A DNA stretch of 64,000 nt from Candidatus Methylomirabilota bacterium. Lineage in GTDB: Bacteria > Methylomirabilota > Methylomirabilia > Rokubacteriales > CSP1-6. Shown here one piece after another: positions 29,149-47,311 of this stretch; the stretch's first letter is position 1; each line of letters opens with the position of its first letter. The position numbers and the translations under genes are program-made. The stretch is taken from positions 34,052-98,051 of the forward strand of contig JBKPCO010000021.1 in NCBI GenBank assembly GCA_046727415.1. The letters are read 5' to 3'. The notes under the pieces are model-generated. The model saw nothing but the letters and a program-made list of their open reading frames with translations, made no database searches and was not told the DNA's origin.

Positions 29149-30348
29149 CTATCGGACGACCTTCTTCGCGCGGAGCGCGCGAATGTCCTCGGCGGAATAG
29201 CCCCACTCGGCCAGCACCTCGTCGGTGTGTTCGCCCTGCATCGGCGCCGGCCGGCGCACGCCCGGACGCATCCGTGAGTATTTCACCGGCGTGCCGATCA
29301 CCGGGATCTCGCCGAGCCGCGGGTGCGTGACGTGCTCGATCATCTGGCGCGCCGCGGTCTGCGCGTCGTTCATCACCTGGGCGACCGTGTTCACCGGCGT
29401 GGCGGGCACGCCGGCGTCCTCGAGCAGCTTCAGCAGCGGCTCGCGGTCGAACTTCCCGATCGCTGCGGCCACCGCCGCCTCCAGCTCTGCGCGGTGCCGC
29501 ACGCGGCCGAGATTCTTCGCGAAACGCTCGTCGTCCCTCATGGCGCCGAGGTCGAGCGCCGCGACCAGCCGTTGCCAGAATCGGTCGTTGGCGCCGGCGA
29601 TGAACACCCATTGGCCATCGCGGCAGCGGAAGTTCCGGTAGGGCGCGAGCGACGGATGGGAGGAGCCGAGCGCCTTCGGCTCGGCGCCGGTGAGCAGGAA
29701 ACCCTCCGCGTGGTAGTTCAAGAGCGTCACGGCCGTCTCCAGAAGGGAGCCATCCACCCGCTGGCCCTGGCCGGTCTTCGCCCGATAGAGCAAAGCGTTG
29801 ACGATACCGAAGGCGGAAAAGATCCCGGTCGTGAGATCGAGGAACGAGACGCCGGCGCGGACCGGCGGGCCGTCGGGCTCGCCGGTGATCGACATGATTC
29901 CGCTGAACGCCTGCATGAGAGCCTCGTAGCCCGCCCCGTCCTTCCGCGGACCGGTGCGCCCGAACGCAGAGATCGAGCAGTAGATGAGGCCCGGATTGAT
30001 CGCGGACAGGGTGTCGTAGCCGAGGCCGAAGCCTTCCATCGTGCCCGTCCGGAAATTCTCGATGAGCACGTCGGCACGCTTGACCAGGTTTTTCAAGATA
30101 TCGGCCCCTTCCGGGGTCTTGAGATCGAGCGTGAGGTCCCGCTTGTTGCGATTGATAACCAGGAACGCCGCTGACTCGCCCTCCTTGTGGGGCGGCCAGG
30201 TGCGGGATTCGTCCCCGGCCCCGGTGTCTTCCACTTTGATGACGTCGGCCCCCATGTCGGACAGGAGCATGCCGCAGAAGGGACCGGCGAGAACGCGCGA
30301 GAGATCGATGACCCGCACACCGTCGAGCGAAAGGGCTCCCGTGATCAT
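29149..30348 (-). CDS. CoA-transferase family III protein (CaiB/BaiF).
   Basis: LDGVRVIDLSRVLAGPFCGMLLSDMGADVIKVE is the family-III N-terminal signature. 400 aa. Confidence 0.85.
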   Translation of the reverse strand: MITGALSLDGVRVIDLSRVLAGPFCGMLLSDMGADVIKVEDTGAGDESRTWPPHKEGESAAFLVINRNKRDLTLDLKTPEGADILKNLVKRADVLIENFRTGTMEGFGLGYDTLSAINPGLIYCSISAFGRTGPRKDGAGYEALMQAFSGIMSITGEPDGPPVRAGVSFLDLTTGIFSAFGIVNALLYRAKTGQGQRVDGSLLETAVTLLNYHAEGFLLTGAEPKALGSSHPSLAPYRNFRCRDGQWVFIAGANDRFWQRLVAALDLGAMRDDERFAKNLGRVRHRAELEAAVAAAIGKFDREPLLKLLEDAGVPATPVNTVAQVMNDAQTAARQMIEHVTHPRLGEIPVIGTPVKYSRMRPGVRRPAPMQGEHTDEVLAEWGYSAEDIRALRAKKVVR

Positions 30349-30366
30349 GTGCGCTACTATAACGCT

Positions 30367-33768
<3,402 letters not shown>

Positions 33769-33847: not shown

Positions 33848-34573
33848 TTAGTCGAAGTCGATCTCGAGCCGAACAGTCGGCATGCCGAGCGAGCGCTCGT
33901 TATTCTTCACCGGGAACGGCCCGGACTGACCGTCCAGATAGTAGGCGTCGGCCCCACGCCAGGGCTTGCCGCGCCGGCCCGACGCATCGAGCGCGAAGGG
34001 CAGGCGGAAGGTCCCGGTGAACGTGAAGGCTCCGCCGTCGTAACCGTCGATCGTGCCCACACCCTTGGTGATGAACCCGAGCGGTGCCTGGCCCGACATC
34101 GCCGGCGAAAGATCGGCATCGCCGGTGAAGGTCCCGGTGATGATCACGAACTCGGGCGCATCCACCGTGTTGTTGTCCTGCACCACCACAGCGTAACTCC
34201 CGCTCAAGGTGCCCGTACCGGTCGCGAGGCTCAGGTCGTCGGAGCCCTTCACGTTCACGGTGCAATACTCGGCCTTGGGCGCGAGCTGCTTCACCCAGAT
34301 CGGGCAGAGCGGGGTTCCGAACTTCGCAAATCCGGAAAGCTGAGCCACTGCCTGGCGGTTCATCGCCTTGCTGGAATCGCTCACGTAGCTCACGATGTTG
34401 CCGTTCGCGCTGGGGACTGTGACGGTCAGGTACATGTCCTCGGTGACTTCGTAGAGCACCGCATCGGCGTTCCTGGCCATGGCCGGCGCCGGTCCCCATG
34501 TGAGGACGCACAGCAGGGACATGAGCCCCGGGAGACTCCACGTCACTGCGCTTTTCCAACTTTTGCTCGCCAT
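33848..34573 (-). CDS. Secreted hypothetical protein.
   Basis: 241 aa with a signal peptide. It is Thr/Gly-rich and likely beta-rich, and I recognise no family. It is followed upstream by a 280-bp AT-richer intergenic region. Confidence 0.5.
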   Translation of the reverse strand: MASKSWKSAVTWSLPGLMSLLCVLTWGPAPAMARNADAVLYEVTEDMYLTVTVPSANGNIVSYVSDSSKAMNRQAVAQLSGFAKFGTPLCPIWVKQLAPKAEYCTVNVKGSDDLSLATGTGTLSGSYAVVVQDNNTVDAPEFVIITGTFTGDADLSPAMSGQAPLGFITKGVGTIDGYDGGAFTFTGTFRLPFALDASGRRGKPWRGADAYYLDGQSGPFPVKNNERSLGMPTVRLEIDFD

Positions 34574-34855
34574 CGCACGTCTCCTCGTTTCCAGTACCGA
34601 CGAAGTAGTTGCTATCGCGCTGTACGGGGTGCAAGCGAAATACCAACGCGGACCTCTCGCAAACTATCAATTTCATTGGACTTCCCGGACTTGCTCCCGG
34701 GGGACATTATCCGTAACTGGTTGATTTATTGTCGTTTTCGGTCCGGAAATCGATCTAGAGCCCAAAAAGTACTGATTTGTAGGGAGTTGAAGCCCAGAAG
34801 GCGGGGTGGCGAGAATTTGCCGATCGTGGCGAAATGGCTCGGAGTGCCTGGCCCC

Positions 34856-37546
34856 TCAGAGGTCGAGATCCGGCTCGGCGACGACGGCTCCGGGCCGAGC
34901 CGGCAGCTTGACGGTGAAGGTCGAGCCGCGACCGAGCTCGCTCTTGACCTCAATGGTGCCGCCGTGGCTCTGCACGATGCCCAGGCTCACGGAAAGCCCG
35001 AGCCCGGTGCCGCTCACGTCGGGCTTGGTCGTGAAGAAGGGCTCGAAGATCCGGTCGATGTGCTCCGGCGCGATCCCCGTCCCGGTATCGATCACCTCGA
35101 CCTGCACCATGTCGCCGCTCGCGGCCGAGCGGATGGTGAGGGAGCCGCCGCTGTCTTTCATGACGTAGACGGCATTATTGATGAGGTTGAGGAACACCTG
35201 CTTGATCCGGGGCACGTCGATCTCAACCGGGGCGAGCCCCGGCGCGTACTGCTCCTCGAGCATGATCGAGTCCAGGGCACCCTGGCGACGCAACATGCCG
35301 AGCGTCTGCTCGAGGACGACATTGAGGTCGGTGATCTGGGGAATGAACTCGCGCTGCCGGCTGAAGTGCAGCAGGTCCCGCACGATGTCGCGGGCGCGAC
35401 CGGCCTCCTCCTGGATCAGATCGAGCTCCTCGCGCATCGGCCGGCCGGGCGGGATCTGCTCGGCGAGGTACGACGCGAAGCCGAGGACGCTCGTCAGTGG
35501 ATTGTTGATCTCGTGCGCGATGTTCGCCGCCAGCTCGCCGATCGCAGCCAGTTTGGTCGACTGGATGAGCTGCGCCTGCGTGCGCTTGAGCTCGGCCATC
35601 TGTTGCTTGACGCCCTCGTAAAGACGCGAGTTCTCGCTGGCCACCGCGGCCTGCAGCGCAATGCCCTCGGCGAGTCTCAGCTCCTCGGAGGTGAAGCGGT
35701 GGTGCTCGCGGAGCCAGGCGAGCGCGAAGCCGCCGATCGTGACCCCCTTCCACCGCATCGGCAGGATGAGGACCGACCTGTGCGACAACAGACGGGCGAT
35801 CGGGTGGGTGAAGCGCGGATCGTCCTGGCTGTGGCTCGCATAGACCGGCCCCTCGATCCGCCGCCAGTCGCTCACCTGCGGATCGAGCGATTTGAGGTTG
35901 GCGCTCTCGAGCGCCCCCAGGAGCTCCTTGGGCACGTGATAGCCCACGACCGGCACGAAGCGGCTCCTGTCCTCGCTCAGCAGCCACGCGCCGCCGGTGT
36001 CGGCGCCGAGCGCACGAACCATGGCCCGCGTCGTACGCCGCAAGATCTCGGTGAGCTCCAGCGTGGAGCTAGCGTCCTGGCTCACCGCCAGGAGCGTCTC
36101 GGTGTGGCGCAGACGCTCCTCGGTCTGCTCGTGCAGGCGCGCGTTGCGGATCGCTACCGACGCCGACGTCGCGAGCGCCTCGCCGAGGGCCAGCTCTTCG
36201 GGCGTGAACACATGACGCTCTCGATAGAAGATGGAGAGGACTCCGACCAGCTCGGTCTCGAGGAAGAGCGGAAGGCCGAGGAACGAGACAAATCCTTCGC
36301 CGGCGAACCACTCGCGGCGATTGAGGCTGGGCTCCGCCAGGACATCGCCGTAGGCCAGAGGCTTACGGTGCTTGGTGATCCACCCGATGAGCCCACTGTT
36401 GTCGCCCTCGCCGGCGCCCGCGGTCTCCTTCACCGCCCGGGTCGTCCCGGCCTGCGCACTGAGGCGGAAGACTCCGGAGATGTCATCGACGATGAGAATC
36501 CGCACGACGTCCGCGCCGAAGCGGCTGCGCACAAGCTCGGCGAGCCGGCTGAGCACCTCGGAGACCTGCAGGGTACCGGTCAGCAGGCGGCCGGACTCCA
36601 CGAGGCTCTCCTGCTCGGCGGCGCGCCGCATCACCCCCTCGTAGAGGCGCGCGTTCTCGGCGGCGATCGCGACCTGGTCCGCGACGATCTTGAGGAGCTG
36701 CTCCTCGTCGGCCTTTGCGCCCGGCGGCAAGATGTGGCGCGCGACCATGGTGCCGAGCGAGCGGCCCCGGATCGTCAGCGGCAGCTTCCACTCGACCTCG
36801 GTCCAGTCCTCGGCTGGCGCCGCGCCCGAGCCGGCCAGGACGCTGCGCGGCTGCTCAACCGTGCTCTGCGGCGCGACGACGGTGATGGCCGGCGGACCGG
36901 TGAGCTCGACGCTCAAGCTGTTGGTGCCGATGGCGCCCGCCAGTCCGCCCAGGAGCTTCTCGAGCATCGGAGCGACGCCCAGCTCGGAGGTGATGTCCTG
37001 CATCGAACGGTGCAGGTCTTCGAGCTGTGAGGCCCGACGCACGAAGTGCTGATTGAGCCGCTTGAGCTCCTCGACCTGGTTGAGCAGGCGGTAGACGAGC
37101 CGCTGGTTCAGCTCGCGGAGGTACACGCCCTCGTCGCGGCTCTCCACCCTTTCCCGCTTGCCGCCGAGGAACTCGGCGACCTGCCGGGGGAACGCGTCGA
37201 CGTCGATGGGCTTCTGGATATAGCCGTCGCACCCCGCCACCAGCGTGCGTTGCCGGTCACCCTGCATCGCATAGGCGGTCAGCGCGATCACCGGAGTCGA
37301 GGCGAGATTCGGGAACGACTTCAAAATCGCGACGATCTCATAGCCGTCGACGCCGGGCAGGTTGATGTCGAGCAGGATGAGGGCCGGCTCCTCGCGGATC
37401 GCCGCTTCGATCCCGGCAAGGCCGTCCTCGGCATCGACGAGGAGGTACCCGGCCGCCTCCAGAACGGCGCGGACGAGTAACCGGTTCTCGCGGTTGTCCT
37501 CGATGTACAGGATCTTCGTCTTCTGGTCGAGTGGCCGTGCCGGCAT
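34856..37546 (-). CDS. Hybrid sensor histidine kinase: receiver domain, three GAF domains, HisKA, HATPase.
   Basis: The true start is the ATG at 37546 (MPARPLDQKTKILYIEDN). An N-terminal REC domain (LLDINLPGVDGYEIV) is followed by three GAF-like blocks, then HisKA (IAHEINNPL) and the ATP-binding G1/G2 boxes. Confidence 0.85.
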   Translation of the reverse strand: MPARPLDQKTKILYIEDNRENRLLVRAVLEAAGYLLVDAEDGLAGIEAAIREEPALILLDINLPGVDGYEIVAILKSFPNLASTPVIALTAYAMQGDRQRTLVAGCDGYIQKPIDVDAFPRQVAEFLGGKRERVESRDEGVYLRELNQRLVYRLLNQVEELKRLNQHFVRRASQLEDLHRSMQDITSELGVAPMLEKLLGGLAGAIGTNSLSVELTGPPAITVVAPQSTVEQPRSVLAGSGAAPAEDWTEVEWKLPLTIRGRSLGTMVARHILPPGAKADEEQLLKIVADQVAIAAENARLYEGVMRRAAEQESLVESGRLLTGTLQVSEVLSRLAELVRSRFGADVVRILIVDDISGVFRLSAQAGTTRAVKETAGAGEGDNSGLIGWITKHRKPLAYGDVLAEPSLNRREWFAGEGFVSFLGLPLFLETELVGVLSIFYRERHVFTPEELALGEALATSASVAIRNARLHEQTEERLRHTETLLAVSQDASSTLELTEILRRTTRAMVRALGADTGGAWLLSEDRSRFVPVVGYHVPKELLGALESANLKSLDPQVSDWRRIEGPVYASHSQDDPRFTHPIARLLSHRSVLILPMRWKGVTIGGFALAWLREHHRFTSEELRLAEGIALQAAVASENSRLYEGVKQQMAELKRTQAQLIQSTKLAAIGELAANIAHEINNPLTSVLGFASYLAEQIPPGRPMREELDLIQEEAGRARDIVRDLLHFSRQREFIPQITDLNVVLEQTLGMLRRQGALDSIMLEEQYAPGLAPVEIDVPRIKQVFLNLINNAVYVMKDSGGSLTIRSAASGDMVQVEVIDTGTGIAPEHIDRIFEPFFTTKPDVSGTGLGLSVSLGIVQSHGGTIEVKSELGRGSTFTVKLPARPGAVVAEPDLDL

Positions 37547-37560
37547 TCGACGGCGTCTCC

Positions 37561-39681
37561 TCAGGTCAAGGGCAGCGTGAAGTGGAACGTTGACCCCTGG
37601 TTCTCCCGGCTCTCCGCCCAGATGCGGCCGCCGTGCAACTCCACGAACTTCTTGCTGATGGCGAGCCCCAGTCCGGTGCCGCCGGCGCTGCGCACGACCG
37701 GGTTGTCGAGCTGCTGGAACGGCTCGAAGAGCCGGGCCAGGTCGTCCTCCCGGATCCCGATCCCGGTATCGGCGACGCTCACCCGGACGGCGTCCGGCTC
37801 GGCCACCACGCTGACGAGTACCCGGCCCTGGCCCGTGAACTTGATCGCGTTGGACAAAAGGTTCAGCAGGATTTGCTTGATCTTGGTGCGATCGCCGGAC
37901 AGCGGCGGCAGCTCGAGCGGCACGTTCTTCTCCACCTTCATCTGCTTGCCGCGGGCGAGCGGCATCGACGACTCGATGCACTCGTCGATCAGCTCGTGCA
38001 GATCGACCTCCTCGGGAATCATCTCGAGCTTGCCGGCCTCGATTCGCGAGAAGTCGAGGATCCCGTTGATGAGCTGGAGCAGATGAGCGCCGCTGTTGTG
38101 AACAGAGCGGATATACGTCTCCTGGCGCTCGGTGAGCTCGCCGTCGAAGCGGTTCAGCAGCACTTTCGAGAATCCGATGATCGAATTGAGCGGCGTCCGC
38201 AACTCGTGCGACATACTGGCCAGGAACTGGGACTTGAGCCGACTCGCCTGCATGAGCTCGGCATTGGTCTCCGAGAGCTCCTCGTACAACCGCGCGTTCT
38301 CCAGCGAGATCGCGACCTGGTTGGCCAGGACCGCCAGCACCTCGAGCTCTTGATCGACGAAGATGTCGCCGGAGAGCTTCTCGCCGACCAGCAGGATGCC
38401 GGTGAGTTTGCCCTCGATCTTCAGGGGCACGATGAGCGCCGCCTTGATGGCGTCGAGCTCGTTCTCGGCTGCCTCGAAGTACGCGGCGATCTCCGGGTTC
38501 AGCTTGGCCTCTTCCTTCACGAGGACCCGGCCGGTCTGGTTGAGCCACTGCACGATGCGGCTGTCGATCCGGATCGGCGCTACCGTGCTCCGCTCGCCCA
38601 CGCTAGCGTCCTCGCGGTAGACCACGAACGCGCTACGCTGGGCGTCGTAGATCATCAGCACGCAGTGGGTGAGCGGCACGCCGCGCACCAGCCCGTGCAC
38701 GAGCGTCTCCATCAGCCGGCCGAAGTCCAGGATGGCGCCCATTCGCTTGCTGAGGTCGAGCAGCGTCTCGTAGCAGCCGCGGCGCCGACTGAACATGACC
38801 CGCTCAATCCACTCTTCCAGCCGCTGGCCGATCGGGCTGACCAGCATGGTCATCACGAAACCGAGCGGCAGAATGATCCACAGCGGATTCACCTGGTCCA
38901 AGTCGGCGTACGATTCGGCCGCGACCAGCACCGAGGTCAGCACGCCCCACACCAGGAGGTAGACGGCGCTCTTCTTGACGGCCACGTTGACGTCGAAGAG
39001 CCGGTACCGCACGATCGACGTCCCGAGCATGAGCGCGAACACCATGTTCGCGGGAATGCCCATCGGGTAGACGAGGTCCGCCGCCGGCACGAACCGGACG
39101 AGGATGAACCGGGCGAAGTCGATGACGCCGCCGACCAGGCTCACCAGGGTGCCCAGCAGGATCAAGGTCGCGCGGTTCCGCCGGAAGCTGGAGTCGACAT
39201 CCTTATAGATCCGGATCAGGTGCGAGAGCCCGTAGATCAGGAAGAAGTTGAAGTAGAAGAAGAACGGCGTGTAGAGGATCCCGGTCGCCGGCGCCCAGCC
39301 CCAGTACGTCGACTTGACGCCATGCATGAACAGCGTCGAGCCGCTCAGGTTGATGATGCTGAAGACGAGAGCCAGCGTGTACGCCACCAGCAGGGACGTC
39401 CGGTGTCGGGTCGTGCGCTCGAGGAAGATCAGGACGAAGTGGTAGTAGAACGCCGGGAGCGCGATGACCCCCGTGTGGATGACAACTTCCCAGAAGACGG
39501 CGGTGGTCTCGTCCGGCGCACGACGTAGCATGAACACGCCGAAGTTCCACACGGCCATGCCGCCCACGAAGTACGTGAACAGCCGGTTCAGCCGGCTCTC
39601 CGGGTTGCGAAAGAGCGTGATCCCCGCGAGGAAGACGTTGAGGATCAGCGCGAGGAGCGGAAGAAAATTATGAAACGTCAC
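37561..39681 (-). CDS. Membrane sensor histidine kinase: 7TM receptor (7TMR-DISM-like) N-terminus, GAF, HisKA, HATPase.
   Basis: Seven hydrophobic segments in the first 300 aa, then a GAF domain, HisKA (SMSHELRTPLNSI) and HATPase (DTGIGI...GGTGLGL). 706 aa. Confidence 0.85.
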   Translation of the reverse strand: MTFHNFLPLLALILNVFLAGITLFRNPESRLNRLFTYFVGGMAVWNFGVFMLRRAPDETTAVFWEVVIHTGVIALPAFYYHFVLIFLERTTRHRTSLLVAYTLALVFSIINLSGSTLFMHGVKSTYWGWAPATGILYTPFFFYFNFFLIYGLSHLIRIYKDVDSSFRRNRATLILLGTLVSLVGGVIDFARFILVRFVPAADLVYPMGIPANMVFALMLGTSIVRYRLFDVNVAVKKSAVYLLVWGVLTSVLVAAESYADLDQVNPLWIILPLGFVMTMLVSPIGQRLEEWIERVMFSRRRGCYETLLDLSKRMGAILDFGRLMETLVHGLVRGVPLTHCVLMIYDAQRSAFVVYREDASVGERSTVAPIRIDSRIVQWLNQTGRVLVKEEAKLNPEIAAYFEAAENELDAIKAALIVPLKIEGKLTGILLVGEKLSGDIFVDQELEVLAVLANQVAISLENARLYEELSETNAELMQASRLKSQFLASMSHELRTPLNSIIGFSKVLLNRFDGELTERQETYIRSVHNSGAHLLQLINGILDFSRIEAGKLEMIPEEVDLHELIDECIESSMPLARGKQMKVEKNVPLELPPLSGDRTKIKQILLNLLSNAIKFTGQGRVLVSVVAEPDAVRVSVADTGIGIREDDLARLFEPFQQLDNPVVRSAGGTGLGLAISKKFVELHGGRIWAESRENQGSTFHFTLPLT

Positions 39682-40345
39682 GCGTATCCCCCTCGGCGCC
39701 CTCGAGAGGGAGGTAGACTGGGTCCTTCTTGCGGTGTTGCTCGATCTCCTGCTTCAGGATCCCGAAGACGAGCATGTCCCAACACTGTCCGTCCTGGTAG
39801 CCCGCCTGCCGGAGAATGCCTTCCTGCCGGAAGCCGTTGCGCCGCAGAGAGTTGGCGCTCAGGTGATTGTACTCGTACACCTTCGCCTCGATGCGTCGAA
39901 GTCCCAGTACGTCCACTCCATAGTAAGAGATGAGCTTGCCCGCCTCCACACCAAATCCGCGGCGGAGCGCCTTGGACGCGGTCAGCATGACCTCGAGGAA
40001 CGCATAGCCCTCGAGGAGGTGGATGTTGAACAGCCGTGCCACGCCGAGGGGGCGGCTCCACTCCGGGCTGGCCTCGATCACGAGGACGATCTGGGTCGAG
40101 TCCATCAGGCACGCCTCGTAGAACGAGGAATCCTTGTCGTACACGTGCTTGTAGCTGTTCAGGAACTCGCTGCCGACCATGCGCTCGATAAACGGGTCTT
40201 CCGCCCACTCCGAAAGGTACACGAGGTCCTCCGGCGTCAGCGTGCGGAGGTAGACTCGCAGCCCGCGCGACACGACGCCACGCCGGCGGGCGGCCCCCTC
40301 GCCCGGGCTCACCGGCACGATCGGTCTCTCGTCCACGGCGATCAT
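39668..40345 (-). CDS. GNAT-family N-acetyltransferase (RimJ/RimL-like).
   Basis: 225 aa with acetyl-CoA-binding-like blocks (LGVARLFNI, RRGFGVEA). Confidence 0.65.
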   Translation of the reverse strand: MIAVDERPIVPVSPGEGAARRRGVVSRGLRVYLRTLTPEDLVYLSEWAEDPFIERMVGSEFLNSYKHVYDKDSSFYEACLMDSTQIVLVIEASPEWSRPLGVARLFNIHLLEGYAFLEVMLTASKALRRGFGVEAGKLISYYGVDVLGLRRIEAKVYEYNHLSANSLRRNGFRQEGILRQAGYQDGQCWDMLVFGILKQEIEQHRKKDPVYLPLEGAEGDTRDVS

Positions 40346-40540
40346 TCCCTCGTCGGCTCGTTCTCCTATATGTCCCGGTCAAAGGTGATCTCGACGCGCA
40401 CCGTCGGATCGCCGAGCGCCCGCTCGTCGGGGCCGACCGGGCCGCCCGCCTCGCTCGAGCCGAGCATCGGCCCCAGCATCGAGCCGGCGGTCAGCAGCGC
40501 GATCACACCTATCGCGTGTTCATCGAAAGCTCGGTCGAAC

Positions 40541-41254
40541 TCACGTCGCCCGGCACCAGGCGAGATGGCTCAGGCCAGAGAGAAACGTCTGGCGGGACTC
40601 GAGGACCTCGAAGCCGGCGCGGCGAAGCGTCTCATGGAACTCGGGGGCGCCGAGATATCGATGCTCGCTCTCGCGAAAGAACTCGAAGGCGACCGTCGGC
40701 AGGAGCCAGCGCAGTGCCTGCACTGCCGCGCCGAGCCCCTGCGCCGCCCGCACCGTCTTGAACGTCGAGATCACCCGCGCCGGCCGATCGTAGGTCAGGA
40801 AGATCGCGTGGCCGCCCGGCTTGAGGGCCCGCCGGCAGCCATGCAAGAGCGCGTCGGGATCGGGATGCCAGTACAGCGTGTGCATGCTCACCAGGACGTC
40901 GAAGCTGCCGGCGCCGGGCAGCGCGGCGTGCGCAATGTCGAAATGCTGGAAGGAGAGGCTGGCGCCAAGGGGCCGGTCCTTCTCGCGCGCGATCTCGACC
41001 AGGTGCCGCACGCCGTCTATCCCGACCACCGTGTAGCCTTCCCGGGCGAGCCGGAGGCTCACGTTGCCGATCCCGCACGCTACGTCGAGCACGCGCATCG
41101 CGCGCGGCTTGGCCGGGTCCGGGACCGAGCGGGCGACGAGCGCGACGATCTCCTCGAGCATGCTCTCGTACGGATGGAAGTGCGTCACCACAGCGTCGTA
41201 GCTGACGCCGTAGGTGACGGCAATCATGTGCTCGAGGGCCTCCCGAAAGGGCAT
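40541..41254 (-). CDS. Class I SAM-dependent methyltransferase.
   Basis: VLDVACGIGNVSLRLAREG (motif I) and LKPGGHAIF. The start at 41254 (MPFREALEH) is chosen by alignment to the adjacent paralog. Confidence 0.75.
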   Translation of the reverse strand: MPFREALEHMIAVTYGVSYDAVVTHFHPYESMLEEIVALVARSVPDPAKPRAMRVLDVACGIGNVSLRLAREGYTVVGIDGVRHLVEIAREKDRPLGASLSFQHFDIAHAALPGAGSFDVLVSMHTLYWHPDPDALLHGCRRALKPGGHAIFLTYDRPARVISTFKTVRAAQGLGAAVQALRWLLPTVAFEFFRESEHRYLGAPEFHETLRRAGFEVLESRQTFLSGLSHLAWCRAT

Positions 41255-41334
41255 ACGATCTCCCGTCCGCTCCGGGGGCGAGGCCGGCTGGACGCCGGCC
41301 AAGGACTGAGATGGATACGGCATGCTGTCGTGAC

Positions 41335-42141
41335 TCACCTGATCTCGGCGCTCTTGCGCGCCCACACCAGGAGGCTGGCGCCGCCGAGGAAGGTTCGCCG
41401 CATGTCCAGGACCGCAAACCCGGCCTGTCCGAGCCGTGCCGAGAATGTCGCCTCGTCCCAGTAATGCGGCCCGACGCGCTCGCGGGTCGCCTCGAAGATC
41501 GAGTTGAGCAGAATCCAGAGAAGACCCTGGAACGCCGCTGCCGGTCCGCCGCGCCGCGCGATCTCCCGCAGCGTCGGCCACTGCCCGATTCGCTGCGTGT
41601 GATTCACGAACACCGCGTACCCGCCGGGCTTGAGCACCCGATGCGCTTCCCGCAGGAGCCGCTCTGGCGCCGGGTGCGCGTAGAGCGCGTGGATGCTCAC
41701 GACCTGGTCGAACGCGCCGTCGCGGAACGCGTTACCGCGAGTGAGCTCTCCCTGTCGAAAGGCCAGGTTGGCCAGGTGTCGGGCGCGGCGCTTTCCCTTG
41801 GCCGATCCCACCAGCGGACCGTACGAGTCGAGGCCCGTCACGTTGAAGCCGGCCTCGGCCAGGGCACAGGCGAAATGGCCGGGGCCGCAGCCCACGTCCA
41901 GCACGCGGACCTCACGCCGCTCGAGGCGTGGGGGCACCGCCTTCTCGACCAGGTCGCGAACCTCGGCCTGGAGCCGTTGATAGTGGCTGAATCGCGGATA
42001 GACGTAGTCGTAGACCACGCCGTAACCGACTGCGAGCACGCGATCGAGCCAGCCACGGATCCCGCCGACGTTCCAGGTCATCGCCATTCCAGCCGATTCC
42101 GCCGTCATCGTCGCGAGCGCACCCTGACGTACCCGGTGCAT
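41335..42141 (-). CDS. Class I SAM-dependent methyltransferase, a paralog of the adjacent methyltransferase.
   Basis: VLDVGCGPGHFACALAEAG and LKPGGYAVF. It is collinear with the 40541..41254 product. The start is uncertain (M1, M12 or M19). Confidence 0.75.
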   Translation of the reverse strand: MHRVRQGALATMTAESAGMAMTWNVGGIRGWLDRVLAVGYGVVYDYVYPRFSHYQRLQAEVRDLVEKAVPPRLERREVRVLDVGCGPGHFACALAEAGFNVTGLDSYGPLVGSAKGKRRARHLANLAFRQGELTRGNAFRDGAFDQVVSIHALYAHPAPERLLREAHRVLKPGGYAVFVNHTQRIGQWPTLREIARRGGPAAAFQGLLWILLNSIFEATRERVGPHYWDEATFSARLGQAGFAVLDMRRTFLGGASLLVWARKSAEIR

Positions 42142-42144
42142 CCC

Positions 42145-42522
42145 CTACGCTTTGCCCGCGAGGACTTTGTCGACCGCCCCGCGCAACTCCGAAGGGGTAA
42201 ACGGCTTCAGCAGGATGTAGTCGAACCCCAGCCGCGTCGCCTCGTTGATGATGTCGGGGGTGCCGTGGGCGGTCATGAGCATGCAGGCCATACCTGGACG
42301 GAGCTGCCGCGCCTGCGCGAGGACCTCGAATCCGTTCATCCCCGGCATTTTGTAATCCACGACGAGGAGATCGAACGGCTCACTACTGACGAGCTCGACG
42401 GCCGTCTCGCCGCGATTGGCGGCACGGATCGAGTAGCCCAGTGCCTGCAAAACGTTGACGCACAGGATGACGACCGGACCGGCGTCGTCGACGACAAGGA
42501 TCTTGTGCCGGGTCGAGCCCAT
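42145..42522 (-). CDS. Single-domain CheY-like response regulator.
   Basis: 125 aa with KILVVDDAGP...LLVVDYKMPGMNG...LLKP. Confidence 0.85.
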   Translation of the reverse strand: MGSTRHKILVVDDAGPVVILCVNVLQALGYSIRAANRGETAVELVSSEPFDLLVVDYKMPGMNGFEVLAQARQLRPGMACMLMTAHGTPDIINEATRLGFDYILLKPFTPSELRGAVDKVLAGKA

Positions 42523-44075
42523 CAGCGAGCTGCCACCAGCGGCGCGGCCGGCCCGTCGGTGATGGCCACCGACCGGAGATCGAGATGGCGGCTGATCTGC
42601 TCCAGACGCGCCAGCGGGATCGTCGAGAATGCGTCGGCGGCGAGCGGATCGAACTGCGTGCCGGCGCCCCGCACGATCTCTTCCATCGCCGTCGCCAGCG
42701 GCCGCTTGCTTCGGTACGGGCGGTCAGAGGTCATCGCGTCGAACGCGTCCGCCACCGACACGACCCGGGCGATGAGCGGAATGTCGTCGCCCTTGAGCCC
42801 GTCGGGATAGCCCTTGCCGTCGTAGCGCTCGTGATGGTGACGGACGGCCTTGGCCTCGCAGGCGAGAAAGCGCAGCGGCTTGAGGATCTTGTCGCCGACC
42901 ACCGGATGGGTGCGGATCAGCTCGAACTCCTCCTCGGTCAGCTGGCGCGGCTTGCGGAGGATGTTGTCCATGATGACCAGCTTGCCGAGGTCGTGCAGCA
43001 TGCCGGCCCGGCTCATCAGCACAACGTCGGCCGGCGGCACGCCCATGACGGTGGCGAGCTCGCCCGAGTAGAGCGACACTCGCGCCGAGTGGCCCTTGAG
43101 GTACGGGTCCTTCGACTCGAGCGCGATCACGAAGGAGGAGATCGTGTCGATCAGATTCCGCTCGAGGTGCTCGCGCAGGAGGATCTTCTGCAGCGCGACC
43201 GCCGTGGTCTGCGCGTAGCCCAGCAGGAGCGCCTTCTCGTCAGGCAGGAAGGCACCGTTCTCGGCGCTGCGCCCGACGCACAGGATGCCCATCGCGTCGC
43301 CCACGCCCGGCACCAGCGCCGCCAGGCCCTCGAAACCATGCTCGGTTTTCGCCAAGACGAACGTCTCGCGGCCACCGGTCTTGACGACCTCACCGAACGA
43401 GGCATGCAGGAGCGCCAGAATCTGGCCGACCAACGACGGCTCACCCTTGCGGCTCGCGTTGAACTGCCCGCCCTGGTCCCGCAGCAGCATCAGCGCGCCG
43501 TCGCACCGGAGGCTCTTCATGGTGTACTCGAGCACCTTCTCCGCGAAGACACTGGGCTCGAGTCCCTGCAGCGCCACCTCGCCGATGCCCGAGATAGCCT
43601 CGACGCCGGCCTGCCGCCGCGCCAGCTCCTCCGTCAGCCCTGCCGGGTAGTTGACGTTGCCGTTGCCATCCGCTCGATCCCGCCGGACCCGCTCGATGAG
43701 GTCCTTCACCTCGGTGACCGAGAACGGCTTGGGCAGGTAGTCGTACGCGCCGTGGCGCAGCCCGAAGACGGCAGAGTTGACCGACGGCACCCCGGTGATC
43801 AGCACGACGGGCGTGCTGGGCTGCTTGCCTTTGACCGCGCGGAGCAGGTCGAGACCGCTCAGCCCCGGCATCTTGATGTCGGAGACGACGAGGTCGAAGG
43901 GATCGTCGCCCAGCTGCTCGAGCGCCTGCTCGGCGGTCGACGCGGTGGTGACCTGACAGTTGTTCGACGAGAACGCCGAAGCCAGGAATCGCAGGACCGA
44001 CGCGTTGTCGTCCACGAGCAGGACGCGCAGCCGTTCGGTCTGCGCTCCGGCCGGGACCGCAGTCTGGCCTTCCAT
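42522..44075 (-). CDS. Response regulator with REC, GAF and HD-GYP domains (c-di-GMP phosphodiesterase type).
   Basis: REC (LRVLLVDDNASV...DIKMPGLSG), a central GAF-like region, and C-terminal HD-GYP motifs (GHSARVSLYS, HDLGK, HHERYDGKGYP). The start is the ATG at 44075. Confidence 0.85.
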   Translation of the reverse strand: MEGQTAVPAGAQTERLRVLLVDDNASVLRFLASAFSSNNCQVTTASTAEQALEQLGDDPFDLVVSDIKMPGLSGLDLLRAVKGKQPSTPVVLITGVPSVNSAVFGLRHGAYDYLPKPFSVTEVKDLIERVRRDRADGNGNVNYPAGLTEELARRQAGVEAISGIGEVALQGLEPSVFAEKVLEYTMKSLRCDGALMLLRDQGGQFNASRKGEPSLVGQILALLHASFGEVVKTGGRETFVLAKTEHGFEGLAALVPGVGDAMGILCVGRSAENGAFLPDEKALLLGYAQTTAVALQKILLREHLERNLIDTISSFVIALESKDPYLKGHSARVSLYSGELATVMGVPPADVVLMSRAGMLHDLGKLVIMDNILRKPRQLTEEEFELIRTHPVVGDKILKPLRFLACEAKAVRHHHERYDGKGYPDGLKGDDIPLIARVVSVADAFDAMTSDRPYRSKRPLATAMEEIVRGAGTQFDPLAADAFSTIPLARLEQISRHLDLRSVAITDGPAAPLVAAR

Positions 44076-44095
44076 TTCAGCTGACAAGGGTTCCC

Positions 44096-45562
44096 CTACT
44101 TGGTCGCGCCGAGCTGGCTCAGGAACTCCAGCCACTGGCGAGACAGACCGTCCTTCGGAAAGCTCAGCGATTCGAGCTCGGGACGGTCGTCGACTTCGAG
44201 AGCCGCCTTGGTCGGGCTGGGCTGCGCCGGCGCCGGCTGGGCGGCGACCGGAGCGGCAGCGACCGCCGGGGCAGGAGCCTCGGCCGGCGACGGGCTCTTC
44301 GTCGCCTGCGTGAAGAAGTGCGGCTTGTTGCCGTTGGGCTGGGCCTGGGCCTTCGCCCACACGGGCGGAGTCTGCGCTGAAGCCACCGGAGTCGGTACCG
44401 GGGCCGCCGGGATGACCGTGGGCTCGGCGGGCGCGAGCGATTGCGGCGCCGGCGCGCTCACGGGAGCCGCCGCCGCGACCGGTGCGCTCACCGGCTTGGC
44501 GTCCTGGATTACCGCGACAGGCGTCGGCGATTCTGTCGGGGTCACGAGGGCGGGCGTCGGTGCCGCTTGGGCCACGTGTCCGTTCGTTGCCGTGTCGGCG
44601 ACCGCGAGGGAAGCGGTCGACTGGATCGGCTCGAGCTGAAGCGCCGGCGCTGGCTTCACCGGGTCCGGGGTCGGCGGCTCAGGCGCGATAGCGGTGGGCG
44701 CCACCGACACCGCGGGAACTGGCTCGACCACGAGCTTTACGCTCTGATACTCCTGGACGGCCGGTTGCCCGGCGACGACCGGGACAGCGGGCGGCGCGAC
44801 GACAGTCGGCAGCGCCTCCGGCTCGACGGATTCGATCGCCTCGGCGACGGGCGGCTGGGCGGCTTCAACCGGCGTCGCCACTTCCTCGACAACCGGCTTC
44901 AAGGCTTCGGCCGTGATGGCCCTGATCGCCTCGGTCACCGACGGCCGGACCGGCTGTGTGACCACGACCCGCTGAGGAGCCTCGATCACCGCGGGCCGGA
45001 CCACTTCGGATCTCACCGGCTCGCTGACTGGCTCGACGTGGGCCGCAGGCGCGACGACTGGCGCCGGGGCCGGAGCCTCCGCCGGAGAATCAGCGGGGGC
45101 CTTCCGGAGCCGCTCGACGTGATCGAAGAAGACGACCGATTCGCCGTTGACCTCGAGATGACGGAACTCGAGGCAATCGATCTCAAGGAAGCTGAGCTGC
45201 TTGATCCGGCGGAGGAACGAATCAGTCAGCCGCTCCACGATGAAGAGGATCCGGGGCGGCCGGGTTGTCGAGACCTGGGCCATCGGGTAGAGACGGCGGA
45301 CCGTGTCGGGAAACTCGAGACACCAGGAATAGGCATCCATCACGCGGAGCAGCAGGCCCTCGTGGGCCGTGAAGTCGAGCGCGATCAGCGCGAGCGAGCC
45401 GCGCGAATCCAGCCCGACGAGGTCGATGGCGGCCTGGCCGAGAAGCAAGCGCGAGTCGACAACCTTCAAGCCGGGCTCGATGCCCTCGACGTTGTCGGCG
45501 ATCAGCTTCTCCAACTGGCCGATATCTTTCACTTCAAGCTTCCTGAAGGTCGGTCTCATCAT
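44096..45562 (-). CDS. Hypothetical protein with an N-terminal NucS/PD-(D/E)xK-like (degenerate) domain and a long Pro/Ala/Val-rich low-complexity region.
   Basis: The N-terminal 150 aa resemble the NucS/DUF91 fold pattern (IEPGLKVVDSRLLLGQAAIDLVGLDSRGSLALIALDF), but the catalytic acids are replaced. About 300 aa of PAPAP/PVxxA repeats follow, then a short conserved C-terminus. A sigma-54 promoter candidate lies upstream. Confidence 0.6.
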   Translation of the reverse strand: MMRPTFRKLEVKDIGQLEKLIADNVEGIEPGLKVVDSRLLLGQAAIDLVGLDSRGSLALIALDFTAHEGLLLRVMDAYSWCLEFPDTVRRLYPMAQVSTTRPPRILFIVERLTDSFLRRIKQLSFLEIDCLEFRHLEVNGESVVFFDHVERLRKAPADSPAEAPAPAPVVAPAAHVEPVSEPVRSEVVRPAVIEAPQRVVVTQPVRPSVTEAIRAITAEALKPVVEEVATPVEAAQPPVAEAIESVEPEALPTVVAPPAVPVVAGQPAVQEYQSVKLVVEPVPAVSVAPTAIAPEPPTPDPVKPAPALQLEPIQSTASLAVADTATNGHVAQAAPTPALVTPTESPTPVAVIQDAKPVSAPVAAAAPVSAPAPQSLAPAEPTVIPAAPVPTPVASAQTPPVWAKAQAQPNGNKPHFFTQATKSPSPAEAPAPAVAAAPVAAQPAPAQPSPTKAALEVDDRPELESLSFPKDGLSRQWLEFLSQLGATK

Positions 45563-45606
45563 CGTCTCCCCTGGCCGATTCGGTCGAAAACTCGCGATCT
45601 AATAAA

Positions 45607-45621
45607 GCAAACCAGGGACCA
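45607..45621 (-). promoter_or_regulatory. Candidate sigma-54 (-24/-12) promoter for the 44096..45562 gene.
   Basis: The minus strand reads TGGTCCCTGGTTTGC. The GG(-24) and GC(-12) are spaced exactly as in TGGCACG-N4-TTGC. It lies about 45 nt upstream of the ATG, with a GGGGAG Shine-Dalgarno in between, and directly downstream of an NtrC-family activator gene. Confidence 0.4.
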
Positions 45622-45828
45622 AGGGCCTGGAGATACGCAAGTAGCTGGGAAACATGACGATTCGAGATTTCCGGGTGACCCCTGGGTTGGCTGATTAGTT
45701 TCCAAGATTCGCCGGGCCTCGCGATGACCTTTCCGGAAAGAATTTAAATTCACACACTTGGAAGACTCCAGGAGCCCTGGTCCGGGTTGGCGACGAACTG
45801 ACCAGTGGCGATGGAATGAGCGTGCCGG

Positions 45829-47178
45829 TCACGCTTCCATCAGCTTCTTCCGGAGAGTTTGTCGTGAAATCCCAAGGATTTTTGCCGCTTTGCTCTTGTT
45901 GGACTCTACGCGCTGCATGATCTGGGCGATGTAGGCGCGCTCGACCTCGGCCAGCGTTCGGGGCTCGTCGCCGGTCTGCTGCGCCACGACAGGTTGGCGA
46001 ACCTGCGTGGCGAACTGCACCGGCATATGCGCGGGCTCGATGAAATCCGAACTGCCGAGGATGACGAGGCGCTCGATCAGATTCCTCAGCTCCCGGACGT
46101 TGCCCGGCCACTGGTAGCCCAGCATCAGCCGTTCGGCCTCGGGCGTGAATCCCTTGATCGATTTGTGGAAGCGCGTGTTCGCGTCCAGGACGAAATGCCG
46201 GGCCAGTGGCAGGATGTCTTCGCGGCGCTCGCGCAGCGGCGAAATGTAGATCGGGATCACGTTGAGCCGGTAGAAGAGATCTTCGCGGAACTGTCCGTCC
46301 TTCACGCGCGTCTCGAGCGGCCGATTCGTCGCGGCGATGATCCGGAGATCAACCTTGATGTCGCGCGTGCCGCCCACGCGCCGCAGAACACGCTCCTGCA
46401 AGACGCGGAGGAACTTCGCCTGGCTGTTGAGCGACATCTCGCTGACCTCGTCGAGGAACAGCGTGCCGCGATCGGCCATCTCCATCAGCCCCTTCTTCGA
46501 GGCCTTGGCGTCCGTGAAGGCGCCTTTCTCGTGGCCGAACAGCTCGCTCTCGAAGAGGGTCTCGGTGATCGCGGCGCAGTTGACCTCCATAAACGGGAAA
46601 TCGCGTCGCGAGCTCTCATAGTGCAGGCCGCGCGCCACCAACTCCTTGCCGGTGCCGCTCTCGCCGTGGATCAGGATCGTCGCCGCCTCGCTCCGCGCCA
46701 GCTTGCTGATGAGATCGCGGAGCCGGCGCGTGCCCTCGGACTCGCCGATCAGCTGGTCGACCCGATATTCCTTCTCCTGCAGCCGGTGCAGACGCTGGAT
46801 CTCGCGCCTGGCGCGGACTTCCTCGAGCGCGCGCGCGACAGCCAGCTTGAGCTTGTCGAGGTGTTCGAACGGCTTTTCGAGATAATCGGTGGCGCCGGCC
46901 TTCATCGCCTCCACGGCGCTCTGGATCTGACCGAATCCGGTGATGATGATCACCGCGATCTCGGCGTGCCGTCCCTTGAGCGCGCGCAGGACCTCGATGC
47001 CGTCCATGTCCGGGAGCCGGAGGTCGAGGAGCACCAGGTCAGGGCTCACTTCGTCGGCGGTCTGGAGGCCTTCCTTGCCCGTCCCGACCCCGTGGACTTC
47101 GACCTGGTCCCCGGCCAGCACCCGTGAGCAGAGCGTACGAATGTTCCGTTCGTCGTCGACGACCAGGATGTTGTCCAT
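45829..47178 (-). CDS. Sigma-54-dependent Fis-family response regulator (NtrC-like).
   Basis: REC domain, AAA+ sigma-54 activation domain (GESGTGKE, the GAFTGA-like loop in ESELFGHEKGAFTDA) and a C-terminal Fis HTH (AAKILGISRQTLRKKL). Confidence 0.9.
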   Translation of the reverse strand: MDNILVVDDERNIRTLCSRVLAGDQVEVHGVGTGKEGLQTADEVSPDLVLLDLRLPDMDGIEVLRALKGRHAEIAVIIITGFGQIQSAVEAMKAGATDYLEKPFEHLDKLKLAVARALEEVRARREIQRLHRLQEKEYRVDQLIGESEGTRRLRDLISKLARSEAATILIHGESGTGKELVARGLHYESSRRDFPFMEVNCAAITETLFESELFGHEKGAFTDAKASKKGLMEMADRGTLFLDEVSEMSLNSQAKFLRVLQERVLRRVGGTRDIKVDLRIIAATNRPLETRVKDGQFREDLFYRLNVIPIYISPLRERREDILPLARHFVLDANTRFHKSIKGFTPEAERLMLGYQWPGNVRELRNLIERLVILGSSDFIEPAHMPVQFATQVRQPVVAQQTGDEPRTLAEVERAYIAQIMQRVESNKSKAAKILGISRQTLRKKLMEA

Positions 47179-47311
47179 ATTGCTAAAATAGCGGGAATTT
47201 CCTGCAGGCTGCGCCCAATTTCTTACCAGCCGAGAAGCCCCTGCTCGCTGTATCTGGGCGACGTGAAGCCCCTACTGGCTGGACCGCGAGAACGAGCGCC
47301 GCGCCTTCCGA

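Follow-up and report, generated by a model that had tools for sequence, protein, structure and literature searches.

A conserved sigma-54-dependent signalling locus of Rokubacteria with embedded methyltransferase genes and two unnamed protein families

Gene content and promoters of the locus

The window analysed here is a 64-kb stretch (~68% G+C) of contig JBKPCO010000021.1 from a Candidatus Methylomirabilota bacterium. Nine open reading frames (ORFs), all on the minus strand, lie between positions 34856 and 47178 and are designated G1 to G9 (Table 1). Comparisons with related loci showed that they belong to a conserved sigma-54-dependent signalling system of Rokubacteria, a group of uncultured bacteria that are abundant in soil, have large genomes and are almost uncharted in their sensing and communication. 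The cluster was searched with Pfam, NCBIfam, PDB, PADLOC and Rfam. Each domain call is backed by Pfam, and the receiver Asp contexts, the Walker A motif, the HD-GYP signature and methyltransferase motif I of both paralogs are intact. Each signalling part comes from a known superfamily, and the locus is a two-component/sigma-54/cyclic-dinucleotide operon with embedded enzymes and two unnamed families. None of the signalling parts reaches the cut-off of a named NCBIfam equivalog.

The original prediction, made from the sequence alone, had described nine head-to-tail genes in a single 12-kb operon. The ORFs and the Pfam results agree with it on the coordinates and domains of the nine genes: two GAF-containing histidine kinases, one of them fronted by a 7TM module (G8); an NtrC-type, an HD-GYP and a bare CheY receiver protein; and, between the regulators and the kinases, two paralogous methyltransferases (38% identical) and a GNAT assigned to Acetyltransf_3. 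In the second kinase, G9, the receiver (REC) domain, two clear GAF domains and the kinase core were recovered, whereas the third predicted GAF domain is degenerate and below threshold. The operon holds four to five GAF domains. Five of the junctions are as tight as had been claimed, from -14 to +20 nt (G2/G3, +20; G3/G4, -1, with the G4 start overlapping the G3 stop; G4/G5, +3; G7/G8, -14, with the G7 stop overlapping the G8 start; G8/G9, +14). However, the G1/G2, G5/G6 and G6/G7 junctions are gaps of 266, 80 and 195 nt, the last of which is the site of a gene remnant, X. G2 to G9 do stand behind one promoter, but G1 lies upstream of that promoter and hence outside the G2-G9 transcript, being transcribed from its own promoter, and the unit also holds the X remnant, the downstream gene dn and a second sigma-54 promoter. 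Thus, the unit consists of the activator gene G1 and two sigma-54 transcription units rather than one nine-gene operon. The secreted X/dn family, the second promoter and the standing of G2 as the most distinctive core member had been overlooked.

The sigma-54 promoter predicted in the G1-G2 gap was borne out. This site, TTGGTCCCTGGTTTGCT, shows the GG-N10-GC spacing typical of sigma-54 promoters and is one of only two matches to TTGG-N8-TTGCW in the window (expected 0.24; two matches were reached in 2 of 100 shuffles). The other match is the site upstream of dn. Both keep a fixed distance from their genes in all orthologous loci while the neighbouring bases vary. The spacing between the G2 site and the G2 start is unchanged in 25 loci of the nearer of two deep clades (clade 1), in all 29 further loci compared and in a third, more distant lineage (locus L119). 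The dn site is kept upstream of the dn orthologs in L004, L011, L018, L019 and L029-L032. By their spacing, their position, the nearby gene for an enhancer-binding protein and their conservation, both sites are predicted to be sigma-54 promoters. The strict consensus TGGCAC-N5-TTGCW has no match in the window, a scan allowing two mismatches was not above chance (14 found vs. 16.8 expected), and the sigma-70 and terminator scans gave background levels only.

A common motif, AATCA(G/A)(C/T)C, lies at a constant distance (~75-89 nt) upstream of the G2 and dn sigma-54 sites and was found at 44 of the 60 promoter instances across the clades. G1 may plausibly bind this motif. A TTCCGGA-type palindrome core is also present in the G1-G2 intergenic region of all 26 clade-1 sequences, 17 of which have the CTTTCCGGAA form at about -176 to -180, and it is not conserved in the deeper clade (clade 2). 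In the window, the palindrome TTTCCGGAAA occurs once, which is not above chance alone. As it is restricted to clade 1, this palindrome was demoted as a G1 site and the AATCA(R)(Y)C motif was preferred. A direct repeat, TCGCCA-N12-TCGCCA (45788-45811, minus strand), directly follows the G1 stop codon and is kept in clade-1 loci.

Table 1. Positions of genes and DNA elements at the locus (window coordinates)
Feature	Position	Strand	Description
G1	45829-47178	-	NtrC-type sigma-54 enhancer-binding response regulator; REC + Sigma54_activat (3e-68, 229 bits) + HTH_8
G2	44096-45562	-	488 aa, Pro/Ala-rich; no Pfam or NCBIfam match
G3	42522-44075	-	REC-HD-GYP response regulator; REC + HD_5 (3.8e-37, 128 bits)
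G4	42145-42522	-	single-domain CheY-like receiver; REC only
G5	41335-42141	-	class-I S-adenosylmethionine (SAM) methyltransferase, paralog 1; VLDVGCGPG
G6	40541-41254	-	class-I SAM methyltransferase, paralog 2; VLDVACGIG
X remnant	40366-40506	-	46-codon ORF inside the G6/G7 gap
G7	39668-40345	-	GNAT, Acetyltransf_3; RimJ/SpeG-like
G8	37561-39681	-	multi-pass membrane histidine kinase; HisKA_7TM + GAF + HisKA + HATPase
G9	34856-37546	-	soluble histidine kinase; REC + 2 GAF + third, sub-threshold GAF + HisKA + HATPase
dn	33848-34573	-	241-aa secreted protein downstream of G9, with its own predicted sigma-54 promoter
Predicted sigma-54 promoter of G2-G9	45606-45622	-	TTGGTCCCTGGTTTGCT; -24 TTGG, -12 TTGCT; TTGGTCC-N5-TTTGCT
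Second predicted sigma-54 promoter, of dn	34630-34646	-	TTGGTATTTCGCTTGCA; TTGGTAT-N5-CTTGCA
Candidate enhancer (upstream activating sequence) dyad	45687-45705	-	TTGGAAACTAATCAGCCAA; core AATCAGCC ~75-89 nt upstream of the -24 element
Candidate enhancer of the second promoter	34717-34730	-	AATAAATCAACCAG; motif common to the G2 promoter
Palindrome	45729-45740		CTTTCCGGAAAG; G1-G2 intergenic region; strand not assigned

Conservation across two clades and a distant lineage

A scan of species-representative genomes gave 23 loci, nearly all labelled Rokubacteria, Rokuibacteriota or Methylomirabilota. Overall, the order of the cluster and the sigma-54 -24/-12 element recur in ~40 loci of the two deep clades, at protein identities of 54-96%, and the G1 orthologs are 68-96% identical across all loci. 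In clade 1 the order from G1 to G9 is identical in every sufficiently long locus (~21), and identities to the window are 81-96% for G1, 74-97% for G3, 80-96% for G8, 64-94% for G5 and G6, and 72-92% for the GNAT. However, the flanks of clade 1 are conserved too, with MlaA upstream and metH downstream, so that the synteny of this clade alone is no proof of a functional link.

Clade 2 was revealed by a profile search with the G2 N-terminal domain and a metagenome scan. Its orthologs are 54-76% identical to those of the window, and the same order, with an intact X gene, is found in ~20 further loci. The flanks of clade 2 are unrelated to those of clade 1: DNA ligase, PDH E1, EboA, UDG and GlcD genes occur upstream and a short-chain dehydrogenase gene downstream, and MlaA and metH are absent from the flanks of the loci examined. 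The more distant L119 keeps the NtrC-type regulator, the sigma-54 promoter, G2, the REC-HD-GYP regulator, CheY, two methyltransferases and an X-like secreted protein. An MMPL transporter follows this core, and the part of the locus in view has no GNAT or kinase. The methyltransferases of L119 (6284-9240) are followed by two secreted proteins, one of them X-like, and by the MMPL transporter, which has DUF1329 and TP_0789-like (LolA-like) regions; this arrangement hints at the export of a hydrophobic product.

Orthologs of the G5 type are separable from those of the G6 type in all clades and both hold their positions at 51-67% identity (57% in L119). Some members of the cluster vary. Four loci (L018, L020, L096 and L112) have a single methyltransferase, the GNAT is absent from L036 and L037, and a STAS protein replaces X in L035. 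The original prediction had named, as its own check, whether the trio of two methyltransferases and a GNAT is conserved with HD-GYP and GAF-kinase genes in related genomes. The pairing of the methyltransferases with HD-GYP, CheY and, where in view, GAF kinases holds in ~40 loci and in the L119 core, but the trio as such is not invariant, with the GNAT or one methyltransferase missing in some loci. The invariant core comprises G1, the sigma-54 promoter, G2, G3, G4 and the methyltransferases; an X-family protein accompanies it in most cases. Thus, the methyltransferases are integral to the system, and the GNAT is common and not universal. As the methyltransferase pair and the sigma-54 promoter are kept across clades with unrelated flanks and in L119, the functional integration of the enzymes with the signalling genes is well supported.

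Close-homolog searches with the GNAT and dn were filled by close relatives among the Rokubacteria, and no distant contexts occurred among the matches. Several contigs with the cluster or dn are labelled Binatia, Patescibacteria or Gemmatimonadetes (L006, L117 and P0344), yet their sequences fall among Rokubacteria relatives at ~68% G+C, and these labels are probably binning or labelling errors. For clade 2 and L119, the named records bear only doubtful labels of this kind (Patescibacteria and Binatia).

Regulators, G2, enzymes and secreted proteins

G1 carries D52 in the context DLVLLD, the Walker A motif GESGTGKE, the loop GAFTDA, which differs by one substitution from GAFTGA, and a Fis-type helix-turn-helix. 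These motifs place it among the predicted NtrC-family sigma-54 enhancer-binding response regulators. Among the NCBIfam families it is closest to AtoC/NtrC, although it stays below the equivalog cut-offs of AtoC (469 vs. 714), NtrC (411 vs. 559), the PEP-CTERM regulator PrsR (378 vs. 503) and LuxO (~375 vs. 800). G3 carries the motifs HDLGK and HHERYDGKGYP, and its best PDB matches are V-cGAP3 (5z7c, 5e-44) and PmGH (4mcw, 5e-37), both active phosphodiesterases, with which it shares the HD...HHExxDGxGYP signature. Unlike them, G3 has a receiver domain and a middle domain that is weakly GAF-like (E 0.09). The HD-GYP phosphodiesterase domain thus looks active; the sequence does not discriminate between cyclic di-GMP (c-di-GMP) and 3'3'-cGAMP as the preferred substrate, and the score of G3 is below the cut-off of the NosR-family response-regulator c-di-GMP phosphodiesterases (NF053512; 214.6 vs. 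400 bits). The membrane kinase G8 has short loops and no sizeable periplasmic domain, and its kinase core is closest to those of the hybrid kinases BarA, TorS and LuxQ, although G8 itself lacks a receiver. G9 has a kinase core of the NtrB class, most similar to AtoS/ZraS.

Of all the core members, G2 is conserved best and is the most distinctive. It consists of three parts: an N-terminal domain (residues 1-154), a disordered, variable linker of ~300 aa rich in Pro, Ala, Val and Glu, and an invariant C-terminal motif, VDDRPELESLSFPKDGLSRQWLEFLSQLGATK. The alignment of G2 orthologs shows that the first 154 and the last 35 residues are almost invariant while the linker varies freely. An AlphaFold (AF2) model of the N-terminal domain (predicted local distance difference test, pLDDT, 79) was matched by Foldseek to the C-terminal nuclease domain of EndoMS/NucS (5gke, E 5e-5, template modelling (TM) score 0.54; 2vld, 3.5e-4), and the domain is accordingly modelled as a PD-(D/E)xK fold. 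By sequence, the match to NucS/EndoMS is weak (E 0.045). The first catalytic Asp is kept. However, the catalytic E-L-K of EndoMS aligns with A61-L62-D63 of G2, so that A61 and D63 take the places of the catalytic Glu and Lys, and distant members of the G2 family carry G, A or V at the E-x-K positions; the nuclease triad is absent throughout. G2 further differs from NucS/EndoMS in its long linker and C-terminal motif and in its two-component/c-di-GMP context. The domain begins at residue 1, with no NucS N-terminal DNA-binding domain, and the Pfam NucS_C model is not reached.

The homologs of G2 are all metagenomic hypothetical proteins. The family comprises 551 clusters at 50% identity, in which no member is named or has a Pfam domain. 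All full-length members examined have the same three-part build, most often with FP(N/K)DG.L(T/S)RQWMEFLNQ at the C-terminus. Outside the cluster the contexts of the family vary. In L033 (263-5316) and L034 (6426-11479), a G2 paralog with the C-terminal motif ...LRQAG..GV.VT..GL.IEKR is encoded divergently beside three tandem GAF-GGDEF genes. In L027 (9568-12750), a stand-alone G2-type N-terminal domain (175 aa) overlaps a CheY-like gene on each side, with a GAF histidine kinase next in line; this minimal version ties the G2 domain to receivers. One family member, in L118, has a non-signalling context. The G2 domain would be a signalling adaptor or scaffold and not a nuclease.

Searches of NCBIfam and PDB left the enzymes G5, G6 and G7 without a named function. 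G5, whose true start may lie a few codons downstream of the called one, and G6 match only Methyltransf_11/23/25/31 in Pfam, and their similarity is limited to generic or small-molecule/lipid methyltransferases: UbiG, UbiE, BioC, the fatty-acid O-methyltransferase Mtf2 and the phospholipid N-methyltransferase PmtA, the last being a weak match (PDB 8ys9, 1.8e-10; NF045882). Neither has a CheR (PF01739) or PrmA match, and no MCP, CheA or CheB is found in the cluster. G7 exceeds the Acetyltransf_3 cut-off (42.1 vs. 25.4 bits) and is a GNAT. It lies far below the SpeG and PseH equivalog cut-offs, so that no named function can be assigned.

In the relatives, a gene X of ~225 aa lies between G6 and the GNAT. 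The remnant in the window is a signal peptide joined in frame to the C-terminal ~20 residues, PDERALGDPTVRVEITF, with ~540 bp missing in comparison with L013. X and dn are paralogous (~33% identity), so the window genome has lost one of two X/dn copies, dn being intact. Both proteins have a signal peptide, two invariant Cys residues and the conserved C-terminus ER(A/S)LG.PTVR.E..F. The AF2 model of dn is all-beta (pLDDT 84) and has no significant fold match in the PDB. Throughout clade 1, dn follows G9 and is the last gene of the system, and the similarity of its promoter and upstream motif to those of G2 indicates that it is in the same regulon as G2-G9. The mid-operon X copy is frameshifted in L001, deleted in the window and absent from L020 and L022, which suggests that it is often dispensable. 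A 463-aa call in L001 (15157-16548) that appeared to be an X-GNAT fusion was rejected, as it is really a frameshifted X read through into the GNAT.

A possible self-made-signal circuit and its alternatives

By its architecture, the closest functional analogue of the locus appears to be the phcBSRQ quorum-sensing operon of Ralstonia. In Ralstonia solanacearum, the methyltransferase PhcB makes methyl 3-hydroxymyristate as the signal for the membrane kinase PhcS; further genes of the phc operon encode PhcR, a receiver joined to a kinase, and the receiver PhcQ (PMC8578825). The locus likewise combines a SAM methyltransferase (G5/G6), a membrane kinase (G8), a receiver-kinase (G9) and a single receiver (G4) in one operon, a resemblance of architecture only. 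However, it has two paralogous methyltransferases and a GNAT, GAF domains in its kinases, an NtrC/sigma-54 activator, an HD-GYP regulator, G2 and secreted X proteins; it lacks an output of the LysR-type PhcA and belongs to a different phylum. In the Rpf system, the membrane kinase RpfC senses a fatty-acid signal and the REC-HD-GYP regulator RpfG is the output (PMC5391125). The path from a membrane kinase to a c-di-GMP-degrading REC-HD-GYP regulator, and the clustering of signal-synthesis genes, putative in the locus, with the sensor, recall this diffusible signal factor (DSF) system of Xanthomonas. In contrast, the putative synthase would be the methyltransferases and the GNAT rather than the crotonase-family RpfF or the acyl-CoA ligase RpfB. 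No ECH/crotonase domain was found in any cluster gene, and the cluster thus has no synthase of the Rpf/DSF type. Unlike a hybrid kinase, G8 carries no REC or HPt domains, and the locus has a sigma-54 layer and another kinase in addition. In the Vibrio CqsA/CqsS-LuxO and LuxQ circuits, a multi-pass membrane kinase senses a hydrophobic autoinducer in the membrane and feeds an NtrC-type sigma-54 activator. The locus has a comparable pair in G8, whose sensing in the membrane is putative, and G1. It differs in that G1 is below the LuxO cut-off and that the locus has no LuxU/HPt protein or CqsA-type synthase; an Rfam search of the locus was empty, with no Qrr small RNA. The literature searched contained no description of this cluster or of the G2 and X families.

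The original prediction had proposed a modification step on a signalling protein or a small molecule. Its premise that the enzymes belong to the signalling unit is well supported, as given above. The evidence appears to lean towards a small or hydrophobic molecule over a signalling protein. The most likely reading, at somewhat less than an even chance, is that the enzymes make or modify a small hydrophobic signal in a self-made-signal, quorum-sensing-like circuit. A small exported hydrophobic product is favoured by the family matches of the methyltransferases, the secreted X protein in the operon, the MMPL exporter in L119, the absence of a periplasmic domain in G8 and the GAF domains. In such a circuit, phosphate would pass from G8 to the N-terminal receiver of G9, with G3 and G4 as possible further targets. 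The receiver of G9 is the likeliest acceptor, because G8 has a hybrid-type core without its own receiver and G9 is encoded 14 nt downstream. G9 would then phosphorylate G1, which is probable given that their closest families are AtoS/ZraS and AtoC/NtrC, and phosphorylated G1 would activate both sigma-54 promoters. As the kinase genes stand behind the G1-dependent promoter, the circuit would be self-amplifying (positive feedback). Phosphorylated G3 would hydrolyse c-di-GMP or 3'3'-cGAMP, G4 may serve as a phosphate sink or adaptor, and G2 may act as a scaffold or adaptor to which receiver or GAF proteins dock by way of its dead-nuclease domain and C-terminal peptide. The molecule itself would be made or modified by the two methyltransferases, joined in most lineages by the GNAT. 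Once outside the cytoplasm, it would be taken up by the X/dn proteins of the periplasm, and either G8, within the membrane, or the GAF domains would sense it. The circuit as a whole would be built like Ralstonia phcBSRQ with an Rpf-like HD-GYP output.

Several observations weigh against a self-made signal. Every step beyond the conserved sigma-54 operon is inferred. Almost all named records come from a single phylum, so that common ancestry may account for some of the synteny. G5 and G6 are below the NCBIfam cut-off of every named family. L119, as far as it is in view, keeps the methyltransferases beside G2, G3 and G4 and shows no kinase or GNAT, which fits a G2, G3 or G4 target as well as a signal for G8. 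The deletion of X in the window and the absence of the GNAT from L036 and L037 indicate that neither is essential to the core mechanism, and a ligand-carrier role of X/dn is speculative given that no significant fold match was found.

Covalent modification of a pathway protein is the first alternative and is favoured by the L119 arrangement. The methyltransferases, with the GNAT, could modify G2, in its Glu-rich linker or at its invariant termini, or else one of the receiver or GAF domains, and so adjust signalling in the manner of CheR/CheB methylation or CheY acetylation in chemotaxis. Some small class-I methyltransferases, such as EftM and PrmA, have proteins as substrates, and the invariant neighbours of the methyltransferases across the three clades are G2, the REC-HD-GYP regulator and CheY, not the kinases. 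The 3 nt from the G4 stop to the G5 start and the 14-nt overlap of the GNAT with G8 are in keeping with this, as are the nearly invariant termini of G2, which would be expected of a recognised substrate or docking partner. However, G5 and G6 gave no match to CheR, PrmA or any other protein methyltransferase, all their matches being generic or to small-molecule/lipid enzymes; Pfam found no demethylase or deacetylase gene in the cluster; and the secreted X and the MMPL exporter of L119 point outside the cytoplasm. Protein modification is considered unlikely. The same pointers to the cell exterior would suit enzymes that are the output of the system, with a phosphorelay that answers an external cue and turns on, through sigma-54, envelope or lipid remodelling (e.g., N-methylation or N-acylation of head groups) or a secreted metabolite, alongside X/dn and lowered c-di-GMP. 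The weak PmtA similarity of G5 and G6, the weakly SpeG/PseH-like GNAT, the exported X/dn proteins and the lipid-type MMPL transporter adjoining the core in L119 agree with such an output, and sigma-54 regulons are reported to concern the cell exterior frequently (PMC3162934). However, the enzyme scores are far below the family cut-offs, the enzyme genes lie between the regulator and kinase genes and do not form a regulated operon of their own, and the MlaA neighbour is found in clade 1 only. An output role is likewise judged improbable.

Chance insertion of generic enzyme genes into a signalling string, with the order kept by genome kinship only, would account for named records that are nearly all Rokubacteria or Methylomirabilota and for the conserved MlaA and metH flanks of clade 1. 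It is already disfavoured by clade 2 and L119, which keep the cluster with entirely different flanks, by G5- and G6-type orthologs that hold their positions at the identities given above, by the short or overlapping junctions and by the one conserved sigma-54 promoter ahead of the string, and is very unlikely. An anti-phage or DNA-targeting, restriction-modification-like defence system is suggested by the NucS/EndoMS fold of the G2 N-terminal domain and by the matches of G5 and G6 to the PADLOC mad2 model (~71-73 bits). However, the mad2 match covers the generic SAM-binding domain only, G2, the GNAT and dn have no PADLOC match, the HD domain is an HD-GYP fused to a receiver, and the context is chromosomal, syntenic and sigma-54 regulated. 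With the catalytic E-x-K lacking from the G2 family, the defence explanation is effectively refuted and its probability is negligible.

In its fullest form, the self-made-signal reading describes a cell-cell or self-signalling system that has not been described before and is so far confined to Rokubacteria. This would include a new methylated or acylated signal, X/dn carriers of a new fold, sensing in the membrane by the 7TM-GAF kinase, conversion to sigma-54 transcription and cyclic-dinucleotide hydrolysis, and an adaptor derived from a dead NucS with a disordered tether and a receiver-docking peptide. Taken together, these parts make a doubtful proposition. If the enzymes do make the ligand, it would be a new chemical class of bacterial signal, and the Phc design would have a second representative, from an unrelated phylum. 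Even otherwise, ten to eleven genes here form a strongly conserved regulatory module with clear wiring: an enhancer-binding protein acts with two sigma-54 promoters, and there are two kinases, four receiver domains and an HD-GYP output. The locus also brings to light two sizeable families unnamed in the databases, the dead-NucS scaffold and the secreted X/dn proteins. The G2 domain, which is found repeatedly beside receiver, GAF, GGDEF and HD-GYP genes, is a candidate new signalling adaptor domain.

Two observations concern the neighbouring genes. The gene for the B12-dependent methionine synthase MetH (30187-33768, plus strand) converges on the end of the cluster, a placement kept in clade 1 only. 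It could be tied to the SAM supply of both methyltransferases, but the placement is probably a coincidence. At the other end, a multi-haem cytochrome c gene separates mlaA and G1 in some relatives (L002, 7255-8190), with none at this place in the window (47179-47311), L001 or L013.

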